Virus record (IMG/VR): IMGVR_UViG_3300017714_003662
Location: 3,945 to 67,944 of that record
Direction: 5' to 3' (one strand)
From: a virus
Length of the DNA: 64,000 bases
Position 1 is the first letter of the stretch; each line of letters starts with the position of its first letter. Below, piece by piece: positions 3,507 through 62,069 of this stretch. The notes under the pieces were generated by a model that was not told the DNA's origin, did no database searches, and saw nothing but the letters and a program-made list of their open reading frames with translations. Position numbers and translations under genes: made by a program.

Positions 3507-4173
3507 AATTAATTTCTTTCAAAAGAGAGTATGCTTTTTCTTTATTGGTATCTGATATATATCCTTGTAAGCCAGCACTGTTTATAAAATTTCTACGATT
3601 AAAAGCATACTCTATTTCACATCCTATAATGTTTTTTGCAATGTCATATGCTTTTACTATTTCATGCCAGTTCCAATCAAAAATTATAAATTTCCACTTA
3701 CCCCAGCCTCCACTTTGAACAAATGTAGTCATATTTTGTATTGCTTTATCAAATATAACCCCTTCTCTATAATGCCAGTTTGTTTCGTTTGATGCACCAT
3801 CGATTGCAAACTTTATATGTAGTTTTTCATTACCAAACTTTTTAGCACTATTACTATACCATAATGGTTTTCTGATTCCACCATTTGTGCTTATTGATAC
3901 CTTGGGTGCATAGTTTAATGCTTCCTCTATGAATAAATCAATATCTGGATTCATCATAGGATCTCCATGCTCTCCGCAAAAAGCAATATTATTTAATTTT
4001 ATTTCATTAAAACTTTTAGTAAGATTTTTAAAATCTTCTATTGATGTATGCTGTAAATTAAGAGAACTTACAGCCTTGCCAGTTTTCTCATCTGTCCTAG
4101 GACATGCTCTACATCTTGCCTGACAATATGTGGTAATAGCAAATTCTATCATATGCATTGGGAACTTTTCCAT
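3496..4173 (-). CDS. Radical SAM core-domain protein
   Basis: CQARCRAC, GEHGDPMMNP, STNGG, AIDG; paralog of 2542..3174. Confidence 0.9.
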   Translation of the reverse strand: MEKFPMHMIEFAITTYCQARCRACPRTDEKTGKAVSSLNLQHTSIEDFKNLTKSFNEIKLNNIAFCGEHGDPMMNPDIDLFIEEALNYAPKVSISTNGGIRKPLWYSNSAKKFGNEKLHIKFAIDGASNETNWHYREGVIFDKAIQNMTTFVQSGGWGKWKFIIFDWNWHEIVKAYDIAKNIIGCEIEYAFNRRNFINSAGLQGYISDTNKEKAYSLLKEINYEV

Positions 4174-4207
4174 ACATATATTTATTTGTATTAATGTTAT
4201 ATCAGTT

Positions 4208-4282
4208 TGGCACCAGTGGAAGGAATCGAACCCTCGTCGTCGGTTTTGGAGACCGCTGTGTTACCATTAGCACCACACTGAT
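4208..4282 (-). tRNA. tRNA-Trp(CCA)
   Basis: ATCAGTGTGGTGCTAATGGTAACAC, anticodon loop CTCCAAA, GGTTCGATTCC, GCCA end. Confidence 0.92.
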
Positions 4283-4288
4283 ATAATT

Positions 4289-4729
4289 TTATTCGTGCTC
4301 ACCACCAGGAGCTCTTGAATTAATACGATTATCTCTTACAAACCACTGTGGTTTACGTTTTGCTGTTTCAAATGTAGCTACTGTTACAGCAATGGCTCCT
4401 AGTAATACTACATGTATCATCATAGAAACTAATCCAGCCCACATACTACCTACAATAAATGCAAATGTAATACACCACATCCATGCTAACACCTGCATAA
4501 TCATATGTCTAGTGCTAAAGTCTGGAATATTACTTAATGGATTTCTTTTATCATCCATTACTGCATTCCAACATTCATATACCCATTCTCTCATATCTTT
4601 TACCTTTTCAAATGTTACTTTAATAGGATAGTTAGCATCTGCACTATCTCTATAGTCTATCGCATCATATAAATCATAAAATTTTTGTACAACCTTATGA
4701 TCTTTAAAATATGCTGTTACTTTATACAT
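4289..4729 (-). CDS. Conserved phage membrane protein
   Basis: AGGAG SD; two C-terminal TM segments. Confidence 0.7.
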   Translation of the reverse strand: MYKVTAYFKDHKVVQKFYDLYDAIDYRDSADANYPIKVTFEKVKDMREWVYECWNAVMDDKRNPLSNIPDFSTRHMIMQVLAWMWCITFAFIVGSMWAGLVSMMIHVVLLGAIAVTVATFETAKRKPQWFVRDNRINSRAPGGEHE

Positions 4730-4785
4730 TTATATAACATCTCCTGTGTTGCAGTATTTAGTTATACTATAATAACTTAATAATG

Positions 4786-6009
4786 TCAAGCACTTTCTTT
4801 AAATGAATTGCTATCTTTTAGTAAATAATCCAAGTAAGGAAATGTATCTAAAAACTTCCTTGGATTGTAACTATCCCAAAATTTTACTATTTGTGGGAAT
4901 AAATGATGATCCTCACCTAGTCCAAAATCATTATGTTCTAAACTTATTAACATATCTTCTGTAAAGTTATGTTCTTTTGGATCGTAATCTTCTAATTCTT
5001 TTCTAATTAAATCTACTTCTCTTTTTCTAATATCTTGTGTTAATCTTGTAAAATGTAGATAATCTTTATCCTGTGAATGATACACTGGTGTTACATCTAT
5101 CTTAAAGCCACTTGTTTTTGTTAGATTTACTAACTTATGGAATCCAACAAAATTTAATAGTTGTATAGTTGGTATTACTTTTACATCTATATTATCATAT
5201 TTGTCGTTAAGCTCTTTAAATAACTTTAAATTTTTTTCTACTACTTTCCATTTTGTAGGAAATCTTACATATTCTATTGTATCTCCAATACCATCTATAC
5301 TTAAATTAAATTCTACTCTTTTATACTTTGTAAATAAATCTACCCATTTTGATCTAAATATTGTAGCATTAGTCAAAAACTTTAAATCAACATTTTCACT
5401 ATAACCATTATCAACTTGCCAATTAATACTGTTTATTACTTGTGGCATTAGTAATGGTTCACCTCCTGCATAACATACTTTTCTAATGTGTTCTGCATTT
5501 TTGTGTAAGTAATCTACCCAACCATCGTCATGTGTTCCATTATATACATCATCCATAAGAAAAAAAGATTTATCTTCGTATTTTCTATATCTATCATCAA
5601 TAGAAGAACTGTTATGTGGATTGCACATTACACATTCTAAATTACAATAATTGCTAGGTCGTATATCATAATAAAGAGGTGGTGGACATTCTGTTAATTT
5701 ATTATCATAAAAGTATTTTGCTTCATTATAAAAATCTTTGTTAAAATCTTGTCTTTTAGATACAATACCATTTTTTTCATCATCTATGCAAACTTGACAT
5801 TCATGCGGCATAATGCGTTTATTAAATAGTTCTCTAAGTTTTTTATATGACTCACTGTTCCAATAACCTTCAACAGTGACAGGATCATCTGTTAAAAATC
5901 TTCCTCTATATTCACAGCAAGGTCTTGCATCGCTTGTGTCTCTTATGTTCTCTTTTAAATACATACTCAAAAAGGGTATAGAACAAAAGTTTTTAAATGT
6001 GTCATCCAT
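4786..6009 (-). CDS. Radical SAM protein with N-terminal twitch/SPASM-like domain
   Basis: N-terminal C..PCC..CxxC, CNLECVMC, AGGEPL, TNAT, SIDG. Confidence 0.92.
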   Translation of the reverse strand: MDDTFKNFCSIPFLSMYLKENIRDTSDARPCCEYRGRFLTDDPVTVEGYWNSESYKKLRELFNKRIMPHECQVCIDDEKNGIVSKRQDFNKDFYNEAKYFYDNKLTECPPPLYYDIRPSNYCNLECVMCNPHNSSSIDDRYRKYEDKSFFLMDDVYNGTHDDGWVDYLHKNAEHIRKVCYAGGEPLLMPQVINSINWQVDNGYSENVDLKFLTNATIFRSKWVDLFTKYKRVEFNLSIDGIGDTIEYVRFPTKWKVVEKNLKLFKELNDKYDNIDVKVIPTIQLLNFVGFHKLVNLTKTSGFKIDVTPVYHSQDKDYLHFTRLTQDIRKREVDLIRKELEDYDPKEHNFTEDMLISLEHNDFGLGEDHHLFPQIVKFWDSYNPRKFLDTFPYLDYLLKDSNSFKESA

Positions 6010-6142
6010 GCTTTTATTTATTTAGAAGTCTCCTTCAATTCCATTGATACTATAAGTCTTACCGTTAAAACCTTTGTCCATTTTTTCTTTATCAGACATA
6101 GTTTCTCCATCTTTGCGTTTTTTATGGTTAAACTTTTCTTTT

Positions 6143-6772
6143 TTATCGGTAGTAGAATCCAATTCTTGGGTTTTTGAGGTGACTGTCTGCATCTTCAAAA
6201 TTTTCTTGATAAAACCAATCATTGTATTTTTCTTTCAATTCTTTTTTATTATTATCCCATACTGGAATAATTTCTGATGCTCCTTTTGGAAAATCAGCAC
6301 CATGTCTTAGATGTATTTCAATAATTTTGTTACCTATAAATTCAACGTTTATATTATCTACATCATCAAAGTCGTATATAAAGTCAGGCAATTTCATAGT
6401 AGGCGGATCTATTATAATCCATCGATAAAACTCTGTTAAGTTTTCACGTGTATTAAATCCTTTACTAGCATGTATTGGAATAAGTTTGCCTTTTTTCCAT
6501 ACATAGTCTATACTAATTTGATCTCCTTCAAATACTTCACACCAAAATTGCCCAGGATTGATTGGATGAAATACATCTTTAGTTATATGTTCAAAACGTG
6601 CATCAATTCCCATACCGCTTAAATTATAAATCGGACGAATAATATACTCGTCCGATTCGGTTACTGGAACTCCTGCTGGCCCACATTTATACCCTAGCTT
6701 TAAACTAAGTTCTAATTTATTAAAAATCCAACTATGATGGGGATATATTTTCCATGCTTGCCAATCATCCAT
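6143..6772 (-). CDS. Conserved phage protein, ATP-grasp-like
   Basis: YIIRPIYNLSGMG, CEVFEG..SID, INVEFIG..IIEIHLR resemble ATP-grasp elements. Confidence 0.55.
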   Translation of the reverse strand: MDDWQAWKIYPHHSWIFNKLELSLKLGYKCGPAGVPVTESDEYIIRPIYNLSGMGIDARFEHITKDVFHPINPGQFWCEVFEGDQISIDYVWKKGKLIPIHASKGFNTRENLTEFYRWIIIDPPTMKLPDFIYDFDDVDNINVEFIGNKIIEIHLRHGADFPKGASEIIPVWDNNKKELKEKYNDWFYQENFEDADSHLKNPRIGFYYR

Positions 6773-6798
6773 TACTATATTTATATTTTACGAATGTT

Positions 6799-8394: not shown

Positions 8395-9174
8395 TTAAAA
8401 AAATCTTTTTACTTTTACATTTTTAGGTATTGGAGTACCATCGTATTCTGCACTCCTTGGTTCAAATTCAAATACATCACTGTGTGGATATTGTTTTATA
8501 TTATCACTAACTACTTCTAAAAACGGTCTAGTGTCTAATCCATCTGGTTCATCTTCACTTGCAACAACATAGTCTAAGTTTCGTGTTTCGTACCATGCTA
8601 AACTTTCATCAGGATATCCTACTCCTACTACTAATAGTGGCGAGTAATAATCACTTTTTTCATATCCTAAAAATTCTTTCCATGCATTTCCACTTTCGTT
8701 ATGCATTGTATTTTGACTGTATCCTGTTTTTAATCCCATCATATGTGCTGCTAAAACCATTTGTCCAGAACTAATTCCTATTGACTTGTTTTGTGTATCT
8801 CTAAAAGTATCTTCAAATTCTTCATTTACACCCGGACCGTCTTCGTCTGCTGCCCATATATCCTGATGTATGTCTTCTGGCAAAGTTTTGCCATATACAA
8901 ATATCAACGGTGCATGAACTTGTGTATTATGCATTGCACTATTGACTTTATCCCAATGGTATCCCCATGTAAATCTTTCTTCATGCTCTTTAAGCATTGC
9001 TTCATTTGTAATTACAGCAAGAGTAAAATCTACTTCATTTTGTTTACTAGGAGCATTGACTGCTATCTCTGTTAAAAAATCTACAGTATCTTGATCTACT
9101 TTCTTGTCTAAGTAATTACGTTGAGCCTTACGACTCTCGTGCATACATTTCAATACAAAGTTTTTGTCTATCAT
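8395..9174 (-). CDS. Nitroreductase-fold protein
   Basis: SRKAQRNY, NAPSKQN, IGISSGQMVLAAHMMGLKTG, LVVGVGYP. Confidence 0.85.
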   Translation of the reverse strand: MIDKNFVLKCMHESRKAQRNYLDKKVDQDTVDFLTEIAVNAPSKQNEVDFTLAVITNEAMLKEHEERFTWGYHWDKVNSAMHNTQVHAPLIFVYGKTLPEDIHQDIWAADEDGPGVNEEFEDTFRDTQNKSIGISSGQMVLAAHMMGLKTGYSQNTMHNESGNAWKEFLGYEKSDYYSPLLVVGVGYPDESLAWYETRNLDYVVASEDEPDGLDTRPFLEVVSDNIKQYPHSDVFEFEPRSAEYDGTPIPKNVKVKRFF

Positions 9175-9218
9175 ACTATTATTTATTATATTGGGGGATT
9201 TTCACCCCCTTCGTTCAA

Positions 9219-10093: not shown

Positions 10094-10110
10094 CCAAAAT
10101 AAATATTACT

Positions 10111-11241
10111 ATGAACAAATATTTTTGTAGTCTCCCGTGGGTCCATTTACGTTTAGATTCAAGTTACAACGGTCAAACAGGTGTAAGTCCATGTTGTAAA
10201 TTTGATTGTGAAGAATGGGATAAACTTAATTCAGAAAATCATGTAAAGTATGGATTACAAAATGCCATGAATACAAATCCATTTAAAAAAATTAGGAGTG
10301 ATATGCTGAATGGAATACCAACTCCTGGATGTATAGACTGTTATGAGGATGATAAGCTACTAGGAGGGTCGATGCGTTCGGCTGCAAATAATTCATATAA
10401 AATTACAAATAAAAATTTAACCACAGAATTTCTTCACACAGAGTATATCGAAGTTTTTTTAGATAATACATGCAACCTTGAATGTAGAATGTGCAGTTCA
10501 ATTAACTCAACTAAATTACGTAGACGTGATAAACTGTTAGGAGATACTGTGCATCCAAACGCAACTTGCGATCCAAATTTACTTGATGAACTAGATTTAA
10601 ATCTTGTAAGAAAAATCAAGCTAATTGGTGGCGAACCATTATTATCAAAACATCATTTACCATTCTTAAAAAAGTTTCCAGACCACAGTAAACTAAATCT
10701 GCTATACAATACTAATGCTACTATTATACCTAGTGGTGAAACTAGAGATATAATGGCAAGTGTTAATGAATTAAATTTTATAATTAGCTGTGATGGAATT
10801 TACAAATATAACGATTATCAAAGATGGGGAAGTAATTTTGAAAGTATTATTGAAAACGGATTAAAAATAAAAAACACATTTAAAAATATTAAATGGTTTA
10901 CGTTTTTAAATACATTCTCAATATTGAATCTAAATGCTTACAAAAAAACCATAGAATGGTTTAAAGAAAATAATCTCGATACTATGTCAAACTGGGGAGA
11001 AGGTGATCTCAGTGTTTGTTTTGCACCAGATTGGTATGAAGAATGGATACTACAAGAAAACGATTGTCCTGAAGTTAGAAGTTATTTTAATGAAAGATGT
11101 CTGAACAGAAAGTATGATCCAAAAAAATGGCAGAAGTTTATTGATTTAATAAAAATTACAGATAAAATGTATGGAACACGTTTAGAAGATTACAATCCCG
11201 AATTAGCAGAACAATTACATAAACACAAAATTTATATCTAA
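10111..11241 (+). CDS. Radical SAM protein with N-terminal twitch/SPASM-like domain
   Basis: FCSLPW..PCC..CxxC, CNLECRMC, IGGEPL; start moved to ATG 10111 (TAAATA-N5-ATG). Confidence 0.92.
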   Translation: MNKYFCSLPWVHLRLDSSYNGQTGVSPCCKFDCEEWDKLNSENHVKYGLQNAMNTNPFKKIRSDMLNGIPTPGCIDCYEDDKLLGGSMRSAANNSYKITNKNLTTEFLHTEYIEVFLDNTCNLECRMCSSINSTKLRRRDKLLGDTVHPNATCDPNLLDELDLNLVRKIKLIGGEPLLSKHHLPFLKKFPDHSKLNLLYNTNATIIPSGETRDIMASVNELNFIISCDGIYKYNDYQRWGSNFESIIENGLKIKNTFKNIKWFTFLNTFSILNLNAYKKTIEWFKENNLDTMSNWGEGDLSVCFAPDWYEEWILQENDCPEVRSYFNERCLNRKYDPKKWQKFIDLIKITDKMYGTRLEDYNPELAEQLHKHKIYI

Positions 11242-11255
11242 TGCTAAATACAAAT

Positions 11256-11570
11256 ATGTTAGAAGATCAAGCAATAGATTATTATAATTTAATTGAACCA
11301 TTACTTGCAATAATTATAGTTGGTGTAATAGGTCTTTGGATCAAAACATTCATAGAAGACTTAGTAGCAAGTATCAGATGGAAAATTAAACCAGGATTTG
11401 AACCTGGAGATGAATGTTTTTTAGATGGCGAGAAAGCTACTATAGTAAGTATTGGATATAGAGAAACTATATTTGAAATTGACAATGGCCGTGGAAAAGT
11501 ATGGCGCTATGTTGATAATAAACGTATACCAGCTATTAGACTGGAGAGAATAATTGCAAAAAAAAATTGA
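11256..11570 (+). CDS. Short MscS-like (mechanosensitive channel domain) protein
   Basis: TM helix then FEPGDECFLDGEKATIVSIG..T, MscS beta domain; start at ATG 11256. Confidence 0.6.
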   Translation: MLEDQAIDYYNLIEPLLAIIIVGVIGLWIKTFIEDLVASIRWKIKPGFEPGDECFLDGEKATIVSIGYRETIFEIDNGRGKVWRYVDNKRIPAIRLERIIAKKN

Positions 11571-12297: not shown

Positions 12298-13264
12298 CAA
12301 TCTCTTCAGTTGTTTCACCGTGTTTCCATATACCATCTAATTGCTTTACAACACATTTATTATTATGTTGAGTTATAGTGGAATCTAGTTGATCCTGACT
12401 ACCAACCATACTAGCAGGAATAGCACTATAACAGGGTAATGGATTTTTTTCCATTGCTAACATCATCATATGTTGGATACCATTATATCTCCAGTTATAG
12501 CCAATTCTATCATCAATACCTCTAGCAAATCCATCATATCTAATTGCATCCCAAATAGTAAAACGTATACTTTCACTATCTGCTTCAATAACTTCATTAT
12601 TGTCTACACCTATGATATTATTTTTTTCATCTACAATTACAGCATGTCCATCAAGCACTGTTTTTTGTCCTTGTGCTAAATTAATAAATTGTTCATCCCA
12701 ACATTCCCAACCTTCAATTATATCTCCGGTTTTATTCCTATAACTTATAGTATCCTCGTCAATAATAATGTTGACTCTTAAACCTGTACTAATTGGTTGC
12801 ACACATGCTGGAAAGTTTTGATAATCAGATACGTCAGCAACACTACATGTTCTAATAGGATATTCCATAATTAGGTTTTCCCAAACACTGTTGATGGTTG
12901 ATATTTCTAAACCTAAATCAAGATCTTGTCTAACCAAATCTAAAAATAAAGGTGCTTCAACATCATCAATATGTTGCAAAGCCATATTACAACTAAATTG
13001 TCTTTCTCTGGGATCTAATTTATTTGCAACTATGTCATCTACAATATGTAGAAACTTGCTTATACCCATTCCAAACTTTTTACCAGATTTTGTTGTCTTA
13101 AAATCTTGCATTTTTAAATTGATCCAAGGATTATAAGCAATACTTACAATACGTTCTAACATTTTTTCTTTTTTGTATTTGGTCAACAATTTACATTTCT
13201 CTGACTGATCAGTCATAGATTGAAGATCTTTAACTATTGTAGAAATTAAATGTGTCTTACCCAT
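12287..13264 (-). CDS. Degenerate ATP-dependent DNA ligase homolog (no catalytic Lys, no OB domain)
   Basis: T4 gp30-like N-terminal domain, LDG, WDAI, VVKQLDGIWK; motif I reads QPISTGLRV instead of KxDGxR. Confidence 0.65.
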   Translation of the reverse strand: MGKTHLISTIVKDLQSMTDQSEKCKLLTKYKKEKMLERIVSIAYNPWINLKMQDFKTTKSGKKFGMGISKFLHIVDDIVANKLDPRERQFSCNMALQHIDDVEAPLFLDLVRQDLDLGLEISTINSVWENLIMEYPIRTCSVADVSDYQNFPACVQPISTGLRVNIIIDEDTISYRNKTGDIIEGWECWDEQFINLAQGQKTVLDGHAVIVDEKNNIIGVDNNEVIEADSESIRFTIWDAIRYDGFARGIDDRIGYNWRYNGIQHMMMLAMEKNPLPCYSAIPASMVGSQDQLDSTITQHNNKCVVKQLDGIWKHGETTEEIVIS

Positions 13265-13365
13265 ATAATTATTTATCTAATTAAAATAGCTGTTAATTAA
13301 TAATATATATGGTTAACTTGGCTATATAACCATTTAAATATATGCAGCAACTAAGGAGAGTTCAA

Positions 13366-20130: not shown

Positions 20131-20352
20131 TCAAGTTTCTTTTGATAGTCTACGTCTATGACGAGCATTGGCGGCTGCCTTTGCTTTTAGACGTTTTTCA
20201 GTGTTACTTGTAAAATGCCTACGTTCTCGGATCTCGTTAAACAATCCGTCACGAAGCAGTTTCTTTTTTAATTGTCTCATTGCTTTATCAACATTATTGT
20301 TGTGGACACTTACAGTCATGCCCTTTTCGCCTTTGATATGATTATTACTCAT
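20131..20352 (-). CDS. rpsU: Ribosomal protein bS21
   Basis: VSVHNNNVDKAMRQLKKKLLRDGLFNEIRERRHF..EKR. Confidence 0.9.
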   Translation of the reverse strand: MSNNHIKGEKGMTVSVHNNNVDKAMRQLKKKLLRDGLFNEIRERRHFTSNTEKRLKAKAAANARHRRRLSKET

Positions 20353-20359
20353 TTAAATC

Positions 20360-26739: not shown

Positions 26740-26962
26740 TCTCAATTTGCTGATCGAATTCACAAGTATCTATATTATCAGGAACACGATAAATGTGAAT
26801 TTCTCCAAAGTTATCTCTAGCAGTTCTAATATATTTACCTTGCTCTAAAAGAACTAATGTACCTTCCATGCCGTCTGCAAGTCCTTGTTTATGTCCACTT
26901 CTATAACTAAAGTAAGCACACGCAATTACAAATGCAAGAAATATAATATACCAAATTTCCAT
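26729..26962 (-). CDS. Small membrane-anchored protein
   Basis: N-terminal TM; TAAATA-N5-ATG start at 26962. Confidence 0.65.
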   Translation of the reverse strand: MEIWYIIFLAFVIACAYFSYRSGHKQGLADGMEGTLVLLEQGKYIRTARDNFGEIHIYRVPDNIDTCEFDQQIENET

Positions 26963-26970
26963 ATACATAT

Positions 26971-31713: not shown

Positions 31714-31721
31714 ATAGGTAT

Positions 31722-38183: not shown

Positions 38184-38195
38184 GCATATATTTAT

Positions 38196-45345: not shown

Positions 45346-46080
45346 TTAAACTATAGGACGTTTTGCAAAACTTGTTTGTTTATAAGTAAATCCATGATCT
45401 TCTGAGCTAGTAGTATTAAACATAAGTTTACCTGCATTAATACTAAAAACAAGATCACTTGTGCCTGTTTGGTCATAAGTGTCTGTAATTGTTGCATCAG
45501 GTGACATACTAGGATTTACACTAATACGTAGTTGACCATTACGTGACATGGTATTTGTATATAGATAGTATTCTATAGACACACTATTTTTTACATTAGA
45601 ATCAAACGAAATACTAGTGGCTTCCGGATCAGTATCTGCTGGCGTTTTTTGAAACTGCACATATTGAACAGATGTTTTGCTACCTTCATTTGTTGTATTA
45701 TTTGTAAGCTCTTCATTAATTTTTATTTTATATACAGCCGCATTTGCAGCCGCTGCGTTTGCTAATCCATGAGAAATAGTTACAAGAGTATCTTCAATAT
45801 CAATGTTAGCTTGTGTTACTTCAACATCATCGATAAAAATTTTATAAGAATTTACATTTACATTGTCAAGATCAATAGGAATAGAATTTCCATTTAGGTT
45901 AACATCAAATGTAACAAATACTAACGTATCAGTTGTATCCGAACTATTAAAAGTTCCTGTGATTGGCTCGGTGCCTACAAACACTCTATTTTCGTCTGAT
46001 GCTAAGCCTAGCTCGCCAGCATCTAAAATTGGCATCTGTGATATAGGACCACGTCTAATTTGTGATTTTACAATAGTCAT
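45346..46080 (-). CDS. Virion fiber/collar-like protein
   Basis: QIRRG..LDAGELGLASDENRVFVG, the N-terminal motif of Mtd/hyaluronidase-type fibers. Confidence 0.7.
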   Translation of the reverse strand: MTIVKSQIRRGPISQMPILDAGELGLASDENRVFVGTEPITGTFNSSDTTDTLVFVTFDVNLNGNSIPIDLDNVNVNSYKIFIDDVEVTQANIDIEDTLVTISHGLANAAAANAAVYKIKINEELTNNTTNEGSKTSVQYVQFQKTPADTDPEATSISFDSNVKNSVSIEYYLYTNTMSRNGQLRISVNPSMSPDATITDTYDQTGTSDLVFSINAGKLMFNTTSSEDHGFTYKQTSFAKRPIV

Positions 46081-46106
46081 AATTTGTCTCCGCTATAACG
46101 TATTTA

Positions 46107-46793
46107 TCATTTATCGTAATATTCGAATAATCTTACAGCCCATTTATATTCCCAAGTTTTAAATTCTTCAGCATCAACCTCAAACAACTGCCATTCGCAA
46201 TCTCCACTACACATAAAGATAGCTACGTTTTCAATTTTAGTTTCAAACATTTCATTATGTGCATTTGCATATGCAGCACCCTGAAGGAAATAGTCTTCAA
46301 TCCATTCACGCTTTTTAGGTTTATTAGTTTGTTTAAAGTCCATGATAGTTGGTTTACCTTTGTACATACCAACCAAGTCTGTTGTACCAGCATACAAATT
46401 AGCAGAACACAAGTTTACTTCTGTTCCCCATATTTCATCAACATCATTTTGAATATTATCCACAACAACTTGTGCCATAGCTTTTGCTTGTCTATGAACA
46501 ATGTTATTGCCTGGATTGTATGTTTCGTATTCACCCAATGCCCAATGTTCTAATATATTGTGCATAACTGTGCCTCTATTAGCAGCAGTAGTTGTAATAC
46601 GTTGTGCTTCTTCTTTGCCAACTCTTTTTTTCCAGTTAGCGAGTGCCTTACGTTTTTCAGCAGGCTTTGTTGCATCAAGAATAGTGGTAACACTTGGAAC
46701 AGGATCGCCCCAAGGATTCTCATATAAACGTTTCCCGTCTACACTTTGTCTTTTGAGTTCTTGATAATTATAGGGATTTGTAAGTTTTACCAT
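46107..46793 (-). CDS. PD-(D/E)XK exonuclease
   Basis: PSVTTIL, RGTVMH, YAGTTD, IMDFKQ, FLQGAAYA. Confidence 0.9.
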   Translation of the reverse strand: MVKLTNPYNYQELKRQSVDGKRLYENPWGDPVPSVTTILDATKPAEKRKALANWKKRVGKEEAQRITTTAANRGTVMHNILEHWALGEYETYNPGNNIVHRQAKAMAQVVVDNIQNDVDEIWGTEVNLCSANLYAGTTDLVGMYKGKPTIMDFKQTNKPKKREWIEDYFLQGAAYANAHNEMFETKIENVAIFMCSGDCEWQLFEVDAEEFKTWEYKWAVRLFEYYDK

Positions 46794-46834
46794 AATACTA
46801 TTGTATATGAAAATACAATAAAGTCAATTGGTTT

Positions 46835-50506: not shown

Positions 50507-50589
50507 ATTTTGCTCTCGCAATCTTTAGCAGCGTCTTTTCAGAGCTGATTTAATGCATAAACTTCCTAATTCATGCTATAGGTATTTAT

Positions 50590-52975: not shown

Positions 52976-53220
52976 TTATCTTTCCTTAGCTTTTTAATAC
53001 CTCTATTAAAACGCTCTGGATCTCTGTTTTTAATGCTTAATATAATACGCTTTTGTAAATCAGATGCAGTTTCTTTATCAAACTTAGTATCAATCATTTC
53101 CATAATATTGATAAGGCTTTGAATAGCATTACTACCTCTGCTTTCTACGATACCAGTTTTGTCCTTTGTTGGACTAATACTATTAATTTCTTCAAGAATA
53201 CTACGAGTGCGTTTTTTCAA
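52972..53220 (-). CDS. Conserved hypothetical phage protein
   Basis: GGAG SD, TTG start, KRTRSILEE. Confidence 0.7.
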   Translation of the reverse strand: MKKRTRSILEEINSISPTKDKTGIVESRGSNAIQSLINIMEMIDTKFDKETASDLQKRIILSIKNRDPERFNRGIKKLRKDK

Positions 53221-53250
53221 TTCACTTCTCCATTACGTTGTATATATTTA

Positions 53251-54648
53251 TCAATTATTACTACGTTTTAACATACTACGAAGGGCATCGTGCGATTTTA
53301 AGTTTTCTTCTACTACACTATTCTCAGCAATACTCTTTTCTTGATGTGTAACTGTACTACGTTGTTTTAATTTATCAAATACTGCACTTGTATTTGTTAC
53401 ATCGCTACCATCTTCATCATCTGCAAGATCAGTAATACGTAATCCAGCAACATCAAAATTTAAATCAACTTTTTGTCCTACACCACTACTGCTACGAGTT
53501 TTCATAAACTGTACTTGATAGCGTCCACGTTCACGCATTGCCTGGCTTGTAAAAATACCAATAACATTATCTGCTGTCTGAATCTTACTTAAACCACCTG
53601 AGATATGACTGTGATCAAATTCTACTTCTTCAACAGCGGCTCTATTTAACTGAGATGCAGTTGCAAACAATAAATCATGTTCCATTGCAAAATTTCTAAG
53701 TTCTTCAGATACAAACTTATCTTTAATAAACAAATCACTTGGGCTTACTTTACTTTGTGCAGGCATCATTAAATCTAAATAGTCTAACAATACTGCATCA
53801 AACTTAATATTGTTTTTTACTTCAAACTCTTTCAAATAACTATTCAAGTCATTTACTGTAATACCGTTAGGAAGTTGTACAATTTGCATTGCACCTGCAT
53901 TTTTTCCTTGCATACGAACTTTCAAATCTACATCATCTGTATTTTTAAAAACATCACGTGTACCCATGCCAGTAAGCATACTATCAAATCTCATACTACA
54001 CAATTCTTCACTAAGTTCGAGGCTTACATATACTACATTTAATCCAGTCAATGCCCAATTCAATGCTAAATTTTGCAAGAACAAACTTTTACCACCGCCA
54101 CTTGCTGCCGCAAATATGTTTAGTTCTCCTCTATTAAAACCACCATATAGTTTTTTATCAATATCAGCCCAACCTGTTGTAGTTCCACCACGTTGATTAC
54201 GCACTCTTTCAATACGTTCTGCAGGATTTTCCCAATAGTCAGTTCCCATATGCCTTGCAAGACCAATTTGCACTGCATCTTTAATCATTTTTTCTACTGC
54301 ACCAAACTCACCTCTTTCAAGTTTGTCTGTACTTGCTAAAATTGCATGCTCAAGTGCTTTGTGTCTTGCAAATTGTTCAAATTCATCAATAAACCATTTT
54401 TTATGTCTATCATCCACATCTTTTAGTGGTTGCAATGTTGTGCCTGTTGTTGCACTAATTTGTTCAAGTGTGGGTAATGCACTATACTCACGTGCATGTT
54501 CTTGCACAAAGTCAACAGCCTTACGTAAACTTCTATCAAAATGATCAGAAACAAGTATGTTATTAATACGCACAAACAAATCTTGATCCTGAGATAAAAA
54601 TTCTACAAATAATTTTTGTAAGTCTACGTTATATTCTCTTTCGCTCAT
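53251..54648 (-). CDS. Replicative helicase (T4 gp41/DnaB-like)
   Basis: AASGGGKSL Walker A, SLELSE, LDYLDL, TASQLNR, KTRSS. Confidence 0.93.
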   Translation of the reverse strand: MSEREYNVDLQKLFVEFLSQDQDLFVRINNILVSDHFDRSLRKAVDFVQEHAREYSALPTLEQISATTGTTLQPLKDVDDRHKKWFIDEFEQFARHKALEHAILASTDKLERGEFGAVEKMIKDAVQIGLARHMGTDYWENPAERIERVRNQRGGTTTGWADIDKKLYGGFNRGELNIFAAASGGGKSLFLQNLALNWALTGLNVVYVSLELSEELCSMRFDSMLTGMGTRDVFKNTDDVDLKVRMQGKNAGAMQIVQLPNGITVNDLNSYLKEFEVKNNIKFDAVLLDYLDLMMPAQSKVSPSDLFIKDKFVSEELRNFAMEHDLLFATASQLNRAAVEEVEFDHSHISGGLSKIQTADNVIGIFTSQAMRERGRYQVQFMKTRSSSGVGQKVDLNFDVAGLRITDLADDEDGSDVTNTSAVFDKLKQRSTVTHQEKSIAENSVVEENLKSHDALRSMLKRSNN

Positions 54649-55655
54649 TTACAATACTTTCTTGCTAATACTTGTATTTTAGTTGAATTAGACACTGTGT
54701 TTTCAAGTATACTTCTTATTGTAAACAATCTTCCGTATTTTGTCAATGCATCTCCAACATCTTTACAGTCTTCCCACTCAGGAAAACTAACATGCCAACC
54801 ACGCTTTATAGCCATATCTATTCCCTTCATACTTGCTTCATCAGCATCGGGTAAGAATATGACACGCTTTTGCAATTCATCAATAATATCTGCTTGTTCT
54901 TCATTTATGTTATTACTACCTATTGCTACACCATCTGTTACTATTGCATCTAACGGACCCTCTGTAACAATTACAATTTCTTTATCATATGTTTGCTTAT
55001 CTAAACCATAAACAAAATTACGTTTAGGTTGCTGATTAAAATATTTAGTCATTTTATCAGGAGGATTACCAATCCACCTTGCAGTATAACCTACAATGTT
55101 TCCTTTATACCAAAAAGGAATTATAAATCTGTTTTTCATTCTACCAGGATTACTATTTGGACTATACCAGAAATTATTACTAAGTGGATCTAATCCTCTA
55201 CTGAATAGGTATTCAATAGCATTTTGTAAATTAGTATCTGCATTTTCATACTTTGAAATAGGTTTCGCGTCTTTTGGTAATTCCATTGTAGGCCAATTAA
55301 TTTGTGTTCTTTTTTTCTCTTCACGTCTAATTAGTAATGTTGCTACATCTGCCTCACGTAACATTTCTAATTGTATACGCTGTATTTCACTTTCATCAGC
55401 ACCAAATGTTGTTAATAACTGTCTAAGTTTTACTGTGATTTTACTACCCGGACTCCAACCAGTTTTAAAATTACAATTAAAACAATTATATTGGACTTTT
55501 TCTTCTTCAAAATAAAATCCACCTCTGCCACGTGTATCTGGCCTTGCTTGTCCATTCTTTATACACATAGGACAATTACCACTTGTCCAGCCACTAGGAC
55601 TTGATTTCCAGTTTACAGGAATCAGAGTTCTGATGTATTGTAGCATTACAGTCAT
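54645..55655 (-). CDS. DNA primase (T4 gp61-like)
   Basis: CPMC..CFNC zinc domain, VTEGPLDA TOPRIM, PDAD, KDVGD. Confidence 0.92.
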   Translation of the reverse strand: MTVMLQYIRTLIPVNWKSSPSGWTSGNCPMCIKNGQARPDTRGRGGFYFEEEKVQYNCFNCNFKTGWSPGSKITVKLRQLLTTFGADESEIQRIQLEMLREADVATLLIRREEKKRTQINWPTMELPKDAKPISKYENADTNLQNAIEYLFSRGLDPLSNNFWYSPNSNPGRMKNRFIIPFWYKGNIVGYTARWIGNPPDKMTKYFNQQPKRNFVYGLDKQTYDKEIVIVTEGPLDAIVTDGVAIGSNNINEEQADIIDELQKRVIFLPDADEASMKGIDMAIKRGWHVSFPEWEDCKDVGDALTKYGRLFTIRSILENTVSNSTKIQVLARKYCK

Positions 55656-55664
55656 ACGTGTATT

Positions 55665-56510
55665 TTACACTCTAATGACTACTTTGTCAACTGTTCCTGT
55701 TTCTTGAGTATGTATTGTTCTAATAAATTTTACGTTTGTTCTAAAAGTCCAAGGATCAACACCAGTAAAAGATGTATATGGGAAAAATGTTTCTGTATAT
55801 TGTCCTAATGTAATATCGAACCAATCTGACTCTGTTGGATTATCGCTTAATGTGCCTTGTGCATAAAATTTACCTGTGTAATTTGTTCCATATACAGCAA
55901 GTGTAATTAATCCATTTGGTTTGTTAAAATAACCAGAAGCTTTCATTCTACTACTATAATAGTAGTAAGTATGTGGATTAGTGCTTGTATCTATTTGTTC
56001 AATAAATGTATCATTTATTTCAGTTGTAAGCGGAAGAGCATCGCCTTCTTCATTTACTTCAACTGTGTAATTAGGACGCATGTGTAAATCACAAAACAGT
56101 GGCATTGTATGTCCTAGGTCTGTTGTATAACTGAATACTAAGTCATAATGTCCTTGGCTAAATTTTGCACTTTCGCCACTTGAAACAAATACTTTTACAC
56201 TTCCTAGTTCATAGTCTGTAATAATTGCTTTTTTACTTACTACTGTTGATCTATCTGTTCTATCAATAAAACTAGCATTAATATTCATACCCTGTAACAT
56301 AATTGCTTTTCGATCTTGATCTTTTATAAACATAAAAAATTCATTATCAAAGCCTCTAAACAATTTTAGAAATCTATAATTTACCGGACTATTCACAGTC
56401 GTGCCTTTTGCACCGGCATATTTAGACAGACCTGTTTTAGCACCATGTGCTTCTATTTGATATAATTCGCCAGTTTGGCTAATATTATACGTTGAACCGT
56501 AATTTGACAT
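55665..56510 (-). CDS. Probable structural beta-rich protein
   Basis: AGGAG SD and TAAATA late motif; start ATG 56510. Confidence 0.6.
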   Translation of the reverse strand: MSNYGSTYNISQTGELYQIEAHGAKTGLSKYAGAKGTTVNSPVNYRFLKLFRGFDNEFFMFIKDQDRKAIMLQGMNINASFIDRTDRSTVVSKKAIITDYELGSVKVFVSSGESAKFSQGHYDLVFSYTTDLGHTMPLFCDLHMRPNYTVEVNEEGDALPLTTEINDTFIEQIDTSTNPHTYYYYSSRMKASGYFNKPNGLITLAVYGTNYTGKFYAQGTLSDNPTESDWFDITLGQYTETFFPYTSFTGVDPWTFRTNVKFIRTIHTQETGTVDKVVIRV

Positions 56511-56572
56511 GCAATATCTCCTACATGTATTTATCAAAAAAACCAAGATTTCTAACAGGTAAATATGTTTAC

Positions 56573-58254: not shown

Positions 58255-58922
58255 AATTCTGCCTTTTTTAATATTTCTTTTGCCCAACTTGTTTCATCTG
58301 GATTTACATTCATTTTTCTTTGCCAAAAATCAATGTCTAAATAGTTGGTAACCATTTTAAGTTGCTCACTATTAAATGTATCTATAAGATTTTGTGCGCT
58401 ACTACTATTAAACAATACCCATGGACTTATCTTACCACTACAAATATGAAACGTTGCTAAATTAGGGCTTACATCTTCAAAATATTTGTTAAATGTAGTA
58501 TTATTTTCCAATGCCCATTTTTCTAAGAATATAATGGTTCTTTCTACAGCCCTATCTGTACTTTCAGTTTTTTGTCGTTCTTTCATCCATTCTGTAAAAT
58601 ACTTATCACGAGTCCAATGATCAAGTCTTGCTTGTTTAGCTAGTAAATATTTTACATAAGCTGGAATATCATCAATACCGATATCCCTACAATAATAGCC
58701 GAACTTACAAAAAGCAATATAGTATTGACTTTTCGCAAAATCGTTATAATCTTTATCTTGTTTACTGTTAGTGCCGATTTGATAAAATAATTGATAGGCT
58801 CGAAAACCAAGCTGAACATGTGGTTCTCCTTTCTGCATATGTCTACGTTTTGGTTCACAAAGATGAACAGCAAGAGTGCTTTCTTTCTTGTATTCTTTGT
58901 TGCAATATTCACATTTATACAT
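58251..58922 (-). CDS. Conserved protein with N-terminal C2HC zinc finger
   Basis: CEYC..HLCE, GKISPW. Confidence 0.7.
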   Translation of the reverse strand: MYKCEYCNKEYKKESTLAVHLCEPKRRHMQKGEPHVQLGFRAYQLFYQIGTNSKQDKDYNDFAKSQYYIAFCKFGYYCRDIGIDDIPAYVKYLLAKQARLDHWTRDKYFTEWMKERQKTESTDRAVERTIIFLEKWALENNTTFNKYFEDVSPNLATFHICSGKISPWVLFNSSSAQNLIDTFNSEQLKMVTNYLDIDFWQRKMNVNPDETSWAKEILKKAEL

Positions 58923-59377
58923 TATTTGAGTATATCTTTTATTTGTTTTTTGTCAAGTCCATATTCTTCTAAAAGTTCATTGAAGTTTTCTTTACTACGA
59001 CATGCAATAAAGATATCTACCTCATCATCATTGAGATGTGAATAATTTTCTTCTACCCATTTTTGTAATTTTGTTTTTTTTCCTGCTCTACCAGGAGCAA
59101 TCCATGGATGAAACGTTGGCTTGCCTAAACCAACAAGTTGTAACAGTTGCCATTGTAGTTGTGGATGTTTACGTAGTTTATTAAAATGAACATTTACAAC
59201 TTCATTTGTCCATTCTAAATAATGCTCTTGAAACATTTTTTCGCCTGCATTACTAGTATATCTCATAAGCAACCACATGCCTAGTTTACCTTTTTCTTCT
59301 TCTGTGAGACTATCATACCAACGTCTATCTTTTGAGTCGATGGCTCTCATCTCTTCTTTAATATTTAACTTACTCAT
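58922..59377 (-). CDS. Clamp loader small subunit-like (gp62-like)
   Basis: LLMRYTS, NEVVN, HPQLQW, HPWI; replication context. Confidence 0.5.
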   Translation of the reverse strand: MSKLNIKEEMRAIDSKDRRWYDSLTEEEKGKLGMWLLMRYTSNAGEKMFQEHYLEWTNEVVNVHFNKLRKHPQLQWQLLQLVGLGKPTFHPWIAPGRAGKKTKLQKWVEENYSHLNDDEVDIFIACRSKENFNELLEEYGLDKKQIKDILK

Positions 59378-59638: not shown

Positions 59639-59847
59639 TACCAAAATCCTAACATTCTTCCATTACCTGCAATTATAGCACAACATGTAACAATATGCAA
59701 CACAATCCAGAATGTTCTAAACAATAATGCTTTATGAACATCATCTTGCGTAATGGGTAAAAACTCTGGCTTGTCATCATCATCGAGTCCAACAGGCATG
59801 CCCACTGTTCTACTCCATAATTTTAAAAAGCGTCTTTGTCCACTCAT
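59638..59847 (-). CDS. Small membrane protein
   Basis: TAATG-coupled. Confidence 0.65.
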   Translation of the reverse strand: MSGQRRFLKLWSRTVGMPVGLDDDDKPEFLPITQDDVHKALLFRTFWIVLHIVTCCAIIAGNGRMLGFW

Positions 59848-60068
59848 TATCCACTCACGTATGTTTTAGACGATGGACGATAAAAGTTTTTTTGATCGTG
59901 AATACGTCCTAACAAATTTTGTATTTCAACCATTTCGTCTCTAAGTTGAGGAGAAGTTTCACCTTCTGCTATAGCAAGTCCTCTACGTCCTGCTTTTGCT
60001 CGTAGTGCTTGTTCAATAATTTCTATGTCTCTAATTGTAAGTTCAAATTTGTTATTTGCTTTTACCAT
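59847..60068 (-). CDS. Conserved hypothetical phage protein
   Basis: FELTIRDIEIIE..LLGRIHDQKNFYRP; start ATG 60068. Confidence 0.7.
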   Translation of the reverse strand: MVKANNKFELTIRDIEIIEQALRAKAGRRGLAIAEGETSPQLRDEMVEIQNLLGRIHDQKNFYRPSSKTYVSG

Positions 60069-60562
60069 AGCTGTGTTATATCCAATACTTCTGGTAACTT
60101 GTTTGCATCCTTTACAAACATCACACAAGGGGGATTCTCTCCATCATGTAAGGGAATACATAGTAAATGACCAAATTTAAGTTTTGGTGCATACCATTTT
60201 ACATCAGTATATATATTAACTATACTTACGTCTAGATATTGCGGCGTATATCCTGTTATTGGATTAAATGCAAATGAATGAAATCCTCTATCATTAAGGC
60301 TCATTAAACTTACAACTTCTGGATCTCCCACCATTGGATCGCATATAACCATGCTCCAGTCTAATGGCATACTTATAGTATACTGACCTACTTTTAAAAC
60401 TGCTGCAGGAGCATAGAAACTTTCCAAAAATACAAGTGGAATAAAATAATAATCAATATAGCTTGGATTACTGTAATCTAATATACCGTATCTCAAGTCT
60501 TCTACTGTATCAGGAACTTCATCCAAATCATAAGTTTGATTTTCAACTGTTAAAATTTTCAT
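60062..60562 (-). CDS. Conserved hypothetical protein next to UvsW
   Basis: DYYFIPLVFLESF..PA, KWYAPKLK. Confidence 0.7.
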   Translation of the reverse strand: MKILTVENQTYDLDEVPDTVEDLRYGILDYSNPSYIDYYFIPLVFLESFYAPAAVLKVGQYTISMPLDWSMVICDPMVGDPEVVSLMSLNDRGFHSFAFNPITGYTPQYLDVSIVNIYTDVKWYAPKLKFGHLLCIPLHDGENPPCVMFVKDANKLPEVLDITQLW

Positions 60563-62010
60563 TAATAATCAACTTTTTCAATAGTAAAGGGGTAGTTAGC
60601 CTCTTTATAGAATTTTTTACGTTCAGTCAAATGTCGCTTGCTGAACTTGGCTGTGCTCGTCACATCCCAAATTTGAACAAAGTCTTTATCTTCTGCTTTA
60701 CGCACACCTCGCCCTATTGACTGTATAACACGGACAAAACTTTTTCCAGGCTCAAGAAGCACAAGATTAAATATACGAGGAATGTTAATACCGACAGCCG
60801 CAACTCCGTATGTTGCCACAACCACATGATTCGTTCCTTCGTTAATTTCTGTGTATGCATCTTTTCTATCCATTGTTTTCATTTCGCCACTTACAAATTC
60901 TGCTTTAGGAATACGCTCACATATCATTTGACCACATTTAATACGATCAACTAATACAAGTGTATTACCACTTTTTGAAATTTTAGTTATAAGTTCAGAA
61001 ATATAATCCATTCTATACTTGTCAGTTGTCAAGTATGTAAGCTCGCTTTGATAATTACTATATTCTGCATGTTCTTTCATTTGCACAACATTTACATGAC
61101 ATTTAGATAAAACATCCATGTCTTGTAATTCGCTAGCACTTAATTTATTTACCACTTCTCCTAAACAGGCCTGCAAACTAACTTTTTCGTGATCAGCTTT
61201 AGGAATTGTACCTGTTAACCCCCATCGTAGTGGTATATGTGAAAAATCTTTAGTAAGTAATTCTTTTAAAACATCTGCTTTAGCTTGATGAACTTCGTCA
61301 ACAATAACACAAGAAACATCTTCTGCAAATTCTTGTAAACTTAATTCACTTTCTCCTTCTCGGAAACGTTTTCTAATACTGTTAAGACTTTGCCAGGTGC
61401 AAATAGTGTGCATTTTACCTAAGTCTTTTTTGTCACCATAATAAACACCAACGTCCAGTCCTAAATTTACATAGTCGTCATATGTTTGTCTAACTAGATC
61501 TTTATTGGGTACAATAACAATACTGCGTCCATATTTTTCTACACGCTCACTTAATGCAGCAGTAACAAGAGTTTTACCAGCACCTGTTGCAATTTCTTGC
61601 AAACATTGTGGTGTATTTAAAAACTGGTTAACTATCTCTATTTGATAGTCACGTAATGTTACTGGCTGTCCTTGTGCAGAATGACCTTCCGGCCATAATT
61701 TGTGTTGGAAGGTTGTTTGATCAACAGCGTCAAACTCAAAGTCATTATGTTTGCGATTATCTTCAACAACTATTTCATAACCATCTTCCACAATAATAGG
61801 CAAAATCCTATCTAAAAGATTTATATATGTTACTCCGCCTACTGTAAAATAGCTTGTGCATCCATCCCAACGTCCCAATTTAAAAGCCGGAACGTGACGT
61901 GCATAAGGCAAGAAAAACTTTAATTCTTTTTCACACTTTTTACGTGTATCTAAATCAAGTCCTTCTATCTTACAATTTACTTCATCTTTTAAAACAATCT
62001 TACAAGCCAT
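60562..62010 (-). CDS. uvsW: SF2 DNA helicase UvsW-like
   Basis: LRDYQ, ATGAGKT, VDEVH, GLTGT, GINIP, QSIGRGVR. Confidence 0.93.
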   Translation of the reverse strand: MACKIVLKDEVNCKIEGLDLDTRKKCEKELKFFLPYARHVPAFKLGRWDGCTSYFTVGGVTYINLLDRILPIIVEDGYEIVVEDNRKHNDFEFDAVDQTTFQHKLWPEGHSAQGQPVTLRDYQIEIVNQFLNTPQCLQEIATGAGKTLVTAALSERVEKYGRSIVIVPNKDLVRQTYDDYVNLGLDVGVYYGDKKDLGKMHTICTWQSLNSIRKRFREGESELSLQEFAEDVSCVIVDEVHQAKADVLKELLTKDFSHIPLRWGLTGTIPKADHEKVSLQACLGEVVNKLSASELQDMDVLSKCHVNVVQMKEHAEYSNYQSELTYLTTDKYRMDYISELITKISKSGNTLVLVDRIKCGQMICERIPKAEFVSGEMKTMDRKDAYTEINEGTNHVVVATYGVAAVGINIPRIFNLVLLEPGKSFVRVIQSIGRGVRKAEDKDFVQIWDVTSTAKFSKRHLTERKKFYKEANYPFTIEKVDY

Positions 62011-62045
62011 ACATTTAATATACTATAGTTACAGTGAAATGTCAA

Positions 62046-62069
62046 TAAAAAAGCCCCATAAGGGGCTTT
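62046..62069 (-). terminator. Intrinsic terminator
   Basis: AAAGCCCC-TTAT-GGGGCTTT plus T-run. Confidence 0.8.

Follow-up and report, generated by a model that had tools for sequence, protein, structure and literature searches.

The window analysed here comprises 64,000 nucleotides (bases 3945–67944) of a single 67,944-base virus contig, IMG/VR record IMGVR_UViG_3300017714_003662, and our subject is a set of its genes whose ATG start codons stand 5 or 6 nt behind a promoter-like motif and whose mRNAs would probably be leaderless. All coordinates are window positions. The G+C content is 33% for the contig and 31–36% across the window, and 104 of 113 open reading frames (ORFs, picked by length) are on the minus strand. 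The record estimates the contig to be 19% complete, so that the full genome is expected at several hundred kb; the contig is about one-fifth of the genome of an uncultured marine giant phage, a distant relative of T4. By UvsW identity, the closest cultured relatives are Sinorhizobium phage Phosso (56.6%), PA5oct and its kin (52.2%), and the Rak2-like giant phages of E. coli (~50%). Pfam and PHROG scans of the window proteins outlined a replication block comprising a UvsW-like helicase (60562–62010), a DNA primase (54645–55655), DnaB (53251–54648), an exonuclease (46107–46793), ribonucleotide reductase (RNR; 40806–44852), and an ATP-dependent DNA ligase (12287–13264), with virion-protein PHROGs interspersed among the replication genes. 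The gene order helicase, primase-DnaB, exonuclease, RNR is common to the contig, Phosso, and PA5oct.

Eight genes carry the heptamer ATAAATA exactly five nucleotides ahead of their ATG. On the minus strand, a 225-residue radical SAM gene (3496–4173) begins at ATG 4173 behind a box at 4185–4179 (site 4171..4185, intergenic and directly behind tRNA-Trp); Pfam Radical_SAM covers residues 13–158 of the product, from profile position 3, and the ATG is the first start codon of the ORF, with no Shine-Dalgarno (SD) sequence. A second radical SAM gene (4786–6009, 407 residues) has its box at 6021–6015 (site 6007..6021), adjoining the TAA stop of the upstream ORF, and matches phrog_14086 over residues 6–282, from profile position 2. 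There follow a 209-residue gene of phrog_3577, a family of unknown function (6143–6772; site 6770..6784), and a nitroreductase-family gene of 259 residues (8395–9174; site 9172..9186), with a GC-rich hairpin immediately upstream and a Pfam Nitroreductase match over residues 14–187, from profile position 3. On the plus strand, ATG 10111 (site 10099..10113) opens a radical-SAM-like gene of phrog_14086 (10111–11241, 376 residues) in a divergent promoter region common with the promoter of the transfer-messenger RNA (tmRNA). The ligase gene (minus strand, 325 residues, phrog_114 over residues 4–317) likewise starts in a divergent intergenic region, at ATG 13264 (site 13262..13276). In L080, a relative that is 92% identical, the box and spacing at both 10111 and 13264 are kept, one spacer letter being altered in each. 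The last two genes, again on the minus strand, are one of 164 residues with no family (31219–31713; site 31711..31725), whose box is abutted by an upstream TAG stop, and a radical SAM/SPASM gene of 353 residues (37122–38183; site 38181..38195), with Radical_SAM over residues 13–176, from profile position 1. Across the eight sites the heptamer is unvarying, the base preceding it varies, and no common −35 element was seen by eye. The family match begins no more than 13 residues from the ATG in six of the eight genes, and those ATGs are the first start codon of the ORF.

The sequence-only reading of this DNA had listed ten occurrences of TAAATA-N5-ATG as leaderless starts, four of them at radical SAM genes. 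All ten were found in place, and the four radical SAM assignments stand, those at 4173, 6009, and 38183 by Pfam and that at 10111 by PHROG. The motif as then written was one base short: nine of the ten read ATAAATA, and 11256 reads CTAAATA. As candidate leaderless starts, eight of the ten hold, and 11256 and 26962 are probably false. At 26962 (ATAAATA-N5-ATG, 26960..26974, minus strand), an in-frame ATG six bases upstream, at 26968, has GGAG at 7 nt; an SD-led start at 26968 is therefore likelier than a leaderless one at 26962, and this candidate was dropped. At 11256 (CTAAATA-N5-ATG, 11245..11258, plus strand), an in-frame ATG at 11241 and the stop codon of gene 10111–11241 share bases as TAATG, which is a classic coupled start. 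Another ATAAATA-N5-ATG, at 36459 on the minus strand, opens no ORF and was rejected as a gene start. It lies 26 nt before tRNA-Ser (36471–36433, with the box 31 nt ahead of the tRNA), and its box is probably the promoter of that tRNA.

The spacing of five nucleotides is not a product of base composition. In the window, TAAATA-N5-ATG has 13 exact matches (36459(−), 38187(−), and 58243(+) in addition to the listed ten), against 3.51 ± 1.84 in 100 dinucleotide-preserving shuffles, none of which reached 13 (largest value 8). In the whole contig there are 27 copies of ATAAATA, 25 of them on the minus, coding strand and two on the plus strand. An ATG stands at offset 5 from 10 of the 27, and each of the other 25 offsets from 0 to 25 holds between zero and four. 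In 500 second-order Markov simulations of the whole contig, ATAAATA-N5-ATG occurred 1.07 ± 1.04 times (maximum 5; none reached the observed 10). The heptamer itself is depleted, at 27 copies versus 47.7 ± 7.1 simulated, and this depletion together with the 25:2 strand bias resembles a functional signal that is avoided elsewhere. When only ATGs opening ORFs of at least 50 residues were counted, nine stood at offset 5, none at offsets 0–4 or 6–16, and seven were spread over 17–35. Set against shuffled controls, then, the N5 spacing is enriched over the AT-rich background, as the sequence-only reading had supposed.

A second group of genes has a promoter of the σ70 type tight against the start codon. 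The layout TTGAC(A/T), a spacer of 16 or 17 nt, a −10 box, six nucleotides, and ATG had been claimed for the exonuclease, primase, and UvsW genes, and it is present at all three exactly as described; we add a fourth, at 58922. All are on the minus strand. The UvsW-like helicase has TTGACA (62045–62040)-N17-TATATT (62022–62017)-N6-ATG 62010 (site 62008..62045), with a terminator-like hairpin at 62050–62069 immediately upstream of the promoter. The primase has TTGACA-N17-TAAAAT-N6-ATG 55655 (55653..55690), the exonuclease has TTGACT-N16-TACAAT-N6-ATG 46793 (46791..46827), and a gene of phrog_11058 (58251–58922) has TTGACA-N16-TATACT-N6-ATG 58922 (58920..58956), a layout also found in L001. ATG 58922 overlaps an upstream stop (TAATG), so that translational coupling is an alternative there. 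The promoters, which begin at 62045, 58956, 55690, and 46827, are σ70-type matches of 10–11 of 12, with spacers of 16–17 nt. The pattern TTGAC[AT]-N16/17-TAnnnT-N6-ATG occurs four times versus 0.13 ± 0.35 in 500 simulations, none of which reached four. A loose σ70 scan of 44001–64000 returned 80 sites, compared with 87.3 ± 8.2 in shuffles; only near-perfect matches are therefore informative, and the loose list was not used. Taken together, the eight late-type sites (those with ATAAATA) and three or four of the σ70-type sites are good candidates for leaderless starts. None of the 12 has an SD core at −3 to −13, the gap of 5 or 6 nt being too short to hold one. All 12 start with ATG, placing A at +1 if transcription begins there, and −1 is a pyrimidine in 10 of them, a context typical of start sites; A at +4, a contact on the λ cI mRNA, is present in only four.

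Both promoter types also occur with leaders. The remaining intergenic ATAAATA boxes lie 17–25 nt (in two cases 42–46 nt) before starts whose leader holds GGAG. On the minus strand, besides the box at 16431, these include 46107–46101, with 20 nt to ATG 46080 (46080..46107); 53251–53245, with 24 nt to TTG 53220 of a virion structural protein gene of phrog_11854 (52972–53220; 53220..53251); and 56534–56528, with 17 nt to ATG 56510 of a virion-protein-like gene (55665–56510; 56510..56534). About ten σ70-type promoters likewise have leaders of 26–39 nt with AGGAG (e.g., 63015, 27879, 852). Promoter-to-start spacing is thus bimodal, with a short, exact class and a long, GGAG-bearing class. A crude SD scan, which takes the start of the longest ORF and so gives a rough overall fraction, detected cores of 4 nt or more before 55 of 114 ORF starts, with none of the 12 candidates among them. 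Judged from the sequence, the phage uses SD pairing, and the putative SD-less genes are those without room for a leader after the promoter.

Some of the leadered promoters have features of their own. Those of the σ70 type at 31180–31118 and 28894–28832 (minus strand) are near-identical over ~55 nt, from the −35 flank through the spacer and TATATT to the first 20 nt of the leader, and they precede different genes (30744–31118 and 28494–28832), which looks like a duplicated promoter cassette. At 63015–62987 and 27879–27851 (minus strand), the 17-nt spacers hold 16-nt palindromes, one perfect and one matching at 7 of 8 positions per arm, and the leaders are alike; a phage repressor of early promoters could use these palindromes as operators. 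Promoters also stand tight against RNA genes, as in TTGACA-N16-TATAAT ending 10 nt before tRNA-Thr (37106–37068, minus strand).

Where transcription should start relative to these motifs can be predicted from well-studied promoters. Transcription from σ70 promoters normally begins at the seventh base past the −10 hexamer, and here that base is the A of the ATG. Relatedly, the Rfam match to the permuted tmRNA starts at 10059, N6+1 downstream of the TATAAA in a promoter with TTGACA-N16, so that this transcript starts no further downstream than the spacing rule predicts. The T4 late promoter is described as a TATA box of 8 bp that lies about one helical turn upstream of where transcription starts (PMC2988020), and in the gp55 open complex A−12, A−9, and A−8 are reported to be flipped into pockets (PMC7892883). 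These flipped bases fit TATAAATA only if it occupies −13 to −6, and a 5-nt spacer therefore puts +1 on the A of the ATG.

That ATAAATA is a late promoter box is suggested by the company that it keeps. In the window it precedes virion genes (52972–53220 and 47498–48262, both with virion PHROGs, and 55665–56510). In PA5oct it precedes the tail tube gene and many genes with products verified in virions by mass spectrometry, and in Phosso it stands ahead of SD-led genes in the corresponding block. In the Rak2-like phage CBB, ATAAATA is reported at 35 places before structural genes and was proposed as a T4-like late promoter, a gp55-like sigma being present (PMC5259590). Among four large fragments related to the contig, three encode a gp55-family sigma, with matches to phrog_12791 (E 8e-71 to 1e-83) and phrog_234 (E 9e-22 to 4e-27). 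ATAAATA would thus be a T4-type late promoter box, presumably read by a gp55-family sigma.

Assembled RNA supports promoter function. Two RNA-labelled marine runs (X1 and X2) hold 66–71% of the sampled words of 52100–62090; their contigs, which were compared with 44001–64000 only, and their depths are near-identical, so that they were counted as one data set, a marine metatranscriptome, although filed under two studies. They may be one data set filed twice. Two other runs, X4 and X5, matched the window in short pieces only (6 and 4 records) and were not used. The contigs give neither strand nor exact ends, and uncovered stretches were not taken as evidence. Depth is stepped, from ~4 over primase-DnaB to 47 over 51627–53225, and is RNA-like, not DNA-like. 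The minus strand of 44001–64000 has five ATAAATA boxes in all, and contigs have their upstream ends shortly behind four of them: at 46086 (box 46107), +10 from the predicted +1; at 50566 (box 50589), +12; at 53225 (box 53251), +15; and at 56513 (box 56534; contig 55697–56513), +10. The box at 50589–50583 heads a strongly covered late unit (50555..50589), the contig 46510–50566 having a depth of 39 versus 7 upstream, and contig 51627–53225, at 47, compares with ~4 upstream. These ends behind four leadered boxes support promoter function of ATAAATA, without fixing +1.

The short spacing recurs in relatives. A UvsW search of IMG/VR gave 77 loci. Among the 19 that are at least 65% identical and have upstream DNA, 12 have TTGAC(A/T)-N17-TAnnnT-N6-ATG; L010 is one base shorter, L039 has a weaker −35 and N9, and the other five have no promoter, UvsW lying inside an operon and in some cases behind GGAG. 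Across 12 distinct UvsW upstream sequences, that of the window among them, conservation reaches 80% only in TTGAC, the −10 box, T(−1), and ATG, and the spacer varies; these rows were chosen for having the layout and so speak to spacer variability, not to frequency. Over all 77 loci, the distance from the σ70 motif to ATG has its main peak at 6 (for the three identity groups, 21 of 61, 11 of 32, and 25 of 119 copies of the motif) and another at ~30–34. The combined motif-plus-ATG opens an ORF of at least 40 residues in 70 of 76 matches, among them orthologues of UvsW (12), primase (10), and gene 58922–59377 (10). Most of the listed alignments start at residue 1, as do those of the UvsW and primase orthologues that have the σ70-N6-ATG layout. 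The primase layout is also found in relatives G002 (as N5) and G003 (N6), the G003 exonuclease matches the window layout, and the PA5oct exonuclease gp244 has TTGACA-N17-TATAAT-N7-ATG.

The late-type layout recurs as well. In G002, of which 62% of the genome was recovered, an ORF-opening ATG stands at offsets 4–7 for 15 of 53 ATAAATA boxes and at offsets 8–12 for none; G003 has four boxes with an ORF-opening ATG at offsets 4–5. The genes abutted by σ70-type promoters in G002 and G003 are those for primase (both), DnaB, UvsW, exonuclease, and a DNA polymerase piece, and those abutted by ATAAATA encode a baseplate wedge subunit, four virion structural proteins, a DNA-binding protein, and others. 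Promoter class thus matches gene class, which is hard to explain unless both motifs are promoters. In cultured phages, ATAAATA-N5-ATG was counted against a reversed-pattern control: there were 9 versus 1 in Pelagibacter phage HTVC008M (complete, 147 kb), 8 versus 4 in PA5oct, 2 versus 0 in T4 (168.9 kb), and 0 versus 0 in Phosso (complete). The arrangement is commoner in the contig (10 in 67.9 kb) than in T4 or PA5oct. In PA5oct it stands at gp262.

These findings are best explained by leaderless transcription, a reading that we consider probable; the placement of +1 at N5 or N6, and translation of the leaderless form, are what we infer. The phage would have two promoter types, host σ70 promoters (TTGACA, 16–17 nt, TAnnnT) before replication and other early genes, and ATAAATA, with no −35 element, for late genes. 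Each type would come in two layouts. In the first, +1 would fall 17–39 nt before the start codon and the leader would carry a GGAG SD sequence. In the second, transcription would start at the first base of an ATG that follows ATAAATA at 5 nt or the −10 hexamer at 6 nt, and would yield an mRNA with neither leader nor SD, which would be translated through direct binding of ribosomes and initiator tRNA to the 5′-terminal AUG. The proposal of the sequence-only reading that these mRNAs start at or next to the AUG thus gains from motif statistics, strand bias, bimodal spacing, conservation, the match of promoter to gene class, RNA behind the leadered boxes, and T4 geometry, although this support is indirect.

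Several observations weigh on the other side. Four starts (6009, 31713, 38183, and 58922) lie 0–10 nt behind the stop of a co-directional ORF, so that re-initiation could supply these genes without leaderless mRNA. No gp55 homologue was found within the contig itself, which is 19% complete. The stretch compared with RNA holds no ATAAATA-N5 site, and the contigs cannot place a start to the base. At UvsW, one contig ends at 61984, 26 nt inside the gene, and that of the twin run reaches 62111, across ATG and promoter. Run X2 has adapter letters after the contig ends 46086 and 50555; if these are true 5′ ends, transcription starts 15–28 nt behind the box, not 6. Contig 46510–50566 spans the exonuclease promoter and ATG from the late unit, and read-through into a candidate leaderless gene therefore occurs. 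Lastly, orthologues of the N5 accessory genes were scarce in IMG/VR, with one locus for the ligase (92% identity), none for radical SAM gene 37122–38183, and for the nitroreductase seven pattern matches of which none was confirmed, so that gene-by-gene conservation of N5 rests on other genes in relatives.

Part of this would suit an alternative in which the promoters are real, their proximity to ATG reflects genome compaction, and translation proceeds mainly from read-through transcripts, by termination-reinitiation or 70S scanning, with leaderless transcripts minor or poorly translated. The nearby stops at 6009, 31713, 38183, and 58922 and the RNA contigs that cross the exonuclease ATG (from the late unit) and the UvsW ATG are what it would predict; promoters also crowd RNA genes (a −10 box ending 10 nt before tRNA-Thr, the tmRNA at N6+1), and the crude scan from longest-ORF starts found no SD core at 59 of 114. 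However, 4173, 6772, 9174, 10111, and 13264 have no co-directional ORF end nearby, being preceded by a tRNA, a 26-nt gap, a hairpin, or divergent regions. Compaction moreover predicts a spread of short distances, whereas the data have one offset and nothing at 0–4 or 6–16, and the exact N6 at UvsW is kept in 12 diverged relatives. We regard this alternative as unlikely.

The window also encodes two translation factors that the sequence-only reading had suggested might retune ribosomes between the two classes of mRNA. Ribosomal protein bS21 (20131–20352; Pfam Ribosomal_S21, 5.3e-13) and initiation factor IF3 (20360–20884; IF3_N, 3.2e-20, and IF3_C, 4.6e-17, the latter match spanning only profile positions 1–65 of 86) are adjacent on the minus strand (20131..20884). 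IF3 begins with an ATG that shares one base with the ClpX stop, and bS21 comes 7 nt after IF3; neither has a recognisable SD, and both sit in a long co-directional run behind an ATAAATA box at 25194. A shift of host ribosomes between the SD-led and leaderless mRNAs of the phage, driven by the IF3 and bS21 that it encodes, is made conceivable by the presence and adjacency of both genes here and in G003, and by E. coli work in which IF3 level and bS21 do affect leaderless translation (PMC9031893, PMC10491246). According to a review, phage phiYS40 raises IF2 and lowers IF3 in the course of producing leaderless mRNAs (PMC3594737). But the direction is opposite to that needed for helping leaderless mRNAs: excess IF3 is reported to inhibit leaderless translation in vitro and in vivo (PMC9031893), and ribosomes without uS2 and bS21 to favour the leaderless λ cI mRNA, bS21 supporting the anti-SD (PMC10491246), so that extra IF3 and bS21 should favour SD-led mRNAs. 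Nor does gene presence track layout. Both genes accompany 10 sites of the ATAAATA-N5 type in this contig and four in G003, but also none in Phosso; HTVC008M and PA5oct have bS21 and no IF3_C match, with nine and eight sites (control 4 in PA5oct), and G002 has neither gene in the 62% recovered, with 15 candidate sites. The retuning idea therefore fares poorly, and we think it quite improbable.

Still less plausible is that ATAAATA at −11 to −5 is not a promoter but an A/U-rich RNA element that recruits ribosomes, an SD substitute bound by bS1. The box is indeed A/T-rich and at the position of an SD, and many genes have no SD core. On the other hand, it also lies 17–46 nt upstream of genes with their own GGAG, too distant for a ribosome-binding site; RNA contigs at four sites start behind the box and exclude it; it precedes tRNA-Ser; and it matches the late promoter proposed for CBB (PMC5259590) and the T4 late box as described (PMC7892883). 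Chance in A/T-rich DNA can effectively be dismissed, since the 33% G+C of the contig and the lack of excess in the loose σ70 scan (80 vs 87.3) are outweighed by 0 of 100 shuffles, 0 of 500 simulations, the 25:2 strand bias, the single offset, and conservation in relatives.

If the leaderless reading is correct, a further possibility, which we advance tentatively and with some doubt, is that translation is gated by the promoter. A 5′-terminal AUG as sole initiation signal would mean that a gene is translated only from transcripts of its own promoter. On one and the same strand, early replication genes are intermingled with late virion genes, and transcripts pass from one class into the other, as contig 46510–50566 does in crossing the exonuclease start from a late unit. 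With the leaderless layout, the two programmes could then be kept separate during translation, no terminators being needed. The phage IF3 and bS21, as products of a late-type unit, could contribute to shutting off the leaderless early class towards the end of infection.

The late mRNAs of T4 have leaders that contain an SD, and T4 further differs in having two ATAAATA-N5-ATG in 168.9 kb versus 10 in 67.9 kb of the contig. The box itself is that of T4 late promoters (TATAAATA; read by gp55 with gp33 and the gp45 clamp) apart from the first T, and the lack of a −35, A/T-rich downstream DNA, and a box at the −10 position are likewise features described for T4 (PMC2988020, PMC7892883); a gp55-family sigma is encoded by relatives of the contig. 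CBB and GAP32 (Rak2-like) and PA5oct have the same heptamer before structural genes, but the accessible part of the CBB paper makes no mention of boxes abutting start codons (PMC5259590). The word 'leaderless' has no occurrence in the PA5oct paper. Thermus phages phiYS40 and Lalka27a, large and lytic, are a close functional parallel, in that their promoters are reported to place the start codon's A or G at the transcript's 5′ end and most transcripts to be leaderless (bioRxiv 10.64898/2026.04.20.719267). They differ in host phylum, where leaderless mRNAs are common, in the late box (TAGGGT), and in having mapped 5′ ends, whereas ours are predicted; phiYS40 is also said to lower IF3 (PMC3594737), whereas the phage of this contig encodes it. 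The λ cI mRNA from PRM is another phage mRNA reported to start at AUG and to be translated by 70S ribosomes (PMC10491246), but is that of a single regulatory gene of a temperate phage, as against about a dozen genes under two promoter types. The cultured Pelagibacter phage HTVC008M (Kyanoviridae) resembles the contig in its nine ATAAATA-N5-ATG (control 1), in bS21, and in its marine alphaproteobacterial host, and differs in belonging to another phage family and in having no IF3_C match. Leaderless mRNAs are known from actinobacteriophages. Transcript starts have been mapped in the giant phages phiKZ, in which no transcript was leaderless, and AR9, whose untranslated regions measure 26–491 nt. 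A literature search returned no paper in which start codons are described as fused to T4-type late promoters or to the promoters of giant phages related to T4; in the cyanophage papers that contain 'leaderless', the word is in a reference title only. What is new here would therefore be not the kind of transcription unit, which is known from phages, but its likely occurrence on the gp55-type late and σ70 early promoters of a widespread giant-phage lineage.

Should +1 fall on the AUG, a large group of abundant marine and freshwater phages would dispense with SD pairing in making replication enzymes, virion proteins, and auxiliary enzymes, radical SAM proteins among them. Start codons in gene calls from viral metagenomes could then be set from the promoter box, and the arrangement would bear on host translation initiation and on how early and late programmes are kept apart. 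HTVC008M on Pelagibacter HTCC1062, with nine such sites, is a cultured system in which this is directly testable.

Other features of the window concern the host and the gene content of the lineage. There are nine tRNAs and, at 9601–10107 (minus strand), a permuted, two-piece tmRNA of alphaproteobacterial type (Rfam tmRNA_permuted 98 bits, alpha_tmRNA 91 bits), for which ARAGORN gave the tag ANNNYAPEMALAA. The type of tmRNA points to an alphaproteobacterial host. Besides bS21 and IF3, the translation and proteostasis genes are ClpX (20884–22062), ClpP (25274–25894), ClpS (19313–19615), and Hsp20 (19625–20050); tmRNA plus these four on one contig would form a full phage-borne set for tagging and degradation. 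Six radical SAM genes, two with SPASM domains, lie within 38 kb (2542–6009, 10111–11241, 29512–30387, and 37122–38183), and near them are the nitroreductase-family gene (8395–9174), a plastocyanin/azurin gene (6799–7257), a DoxX gene (7965–8375), and an ORF (7354–7965) with a weak, sub-cut-off match to a 2OG-Fe(II) oxygenase domain. Lastly, a short ORF of ~170–195 residues at 56919–57503 (minus strand) matches the 'DNA polymerase' family phrog_11778. Its counterpart in G002 (L090:10188–10703) matches phrog_11127, and the syntenic Phosso gene (576 bp) is annotated 'DnaE-like DNA polymerase III alpha'; this looks like a small stand-alone polymerase piece kept in the lineage.

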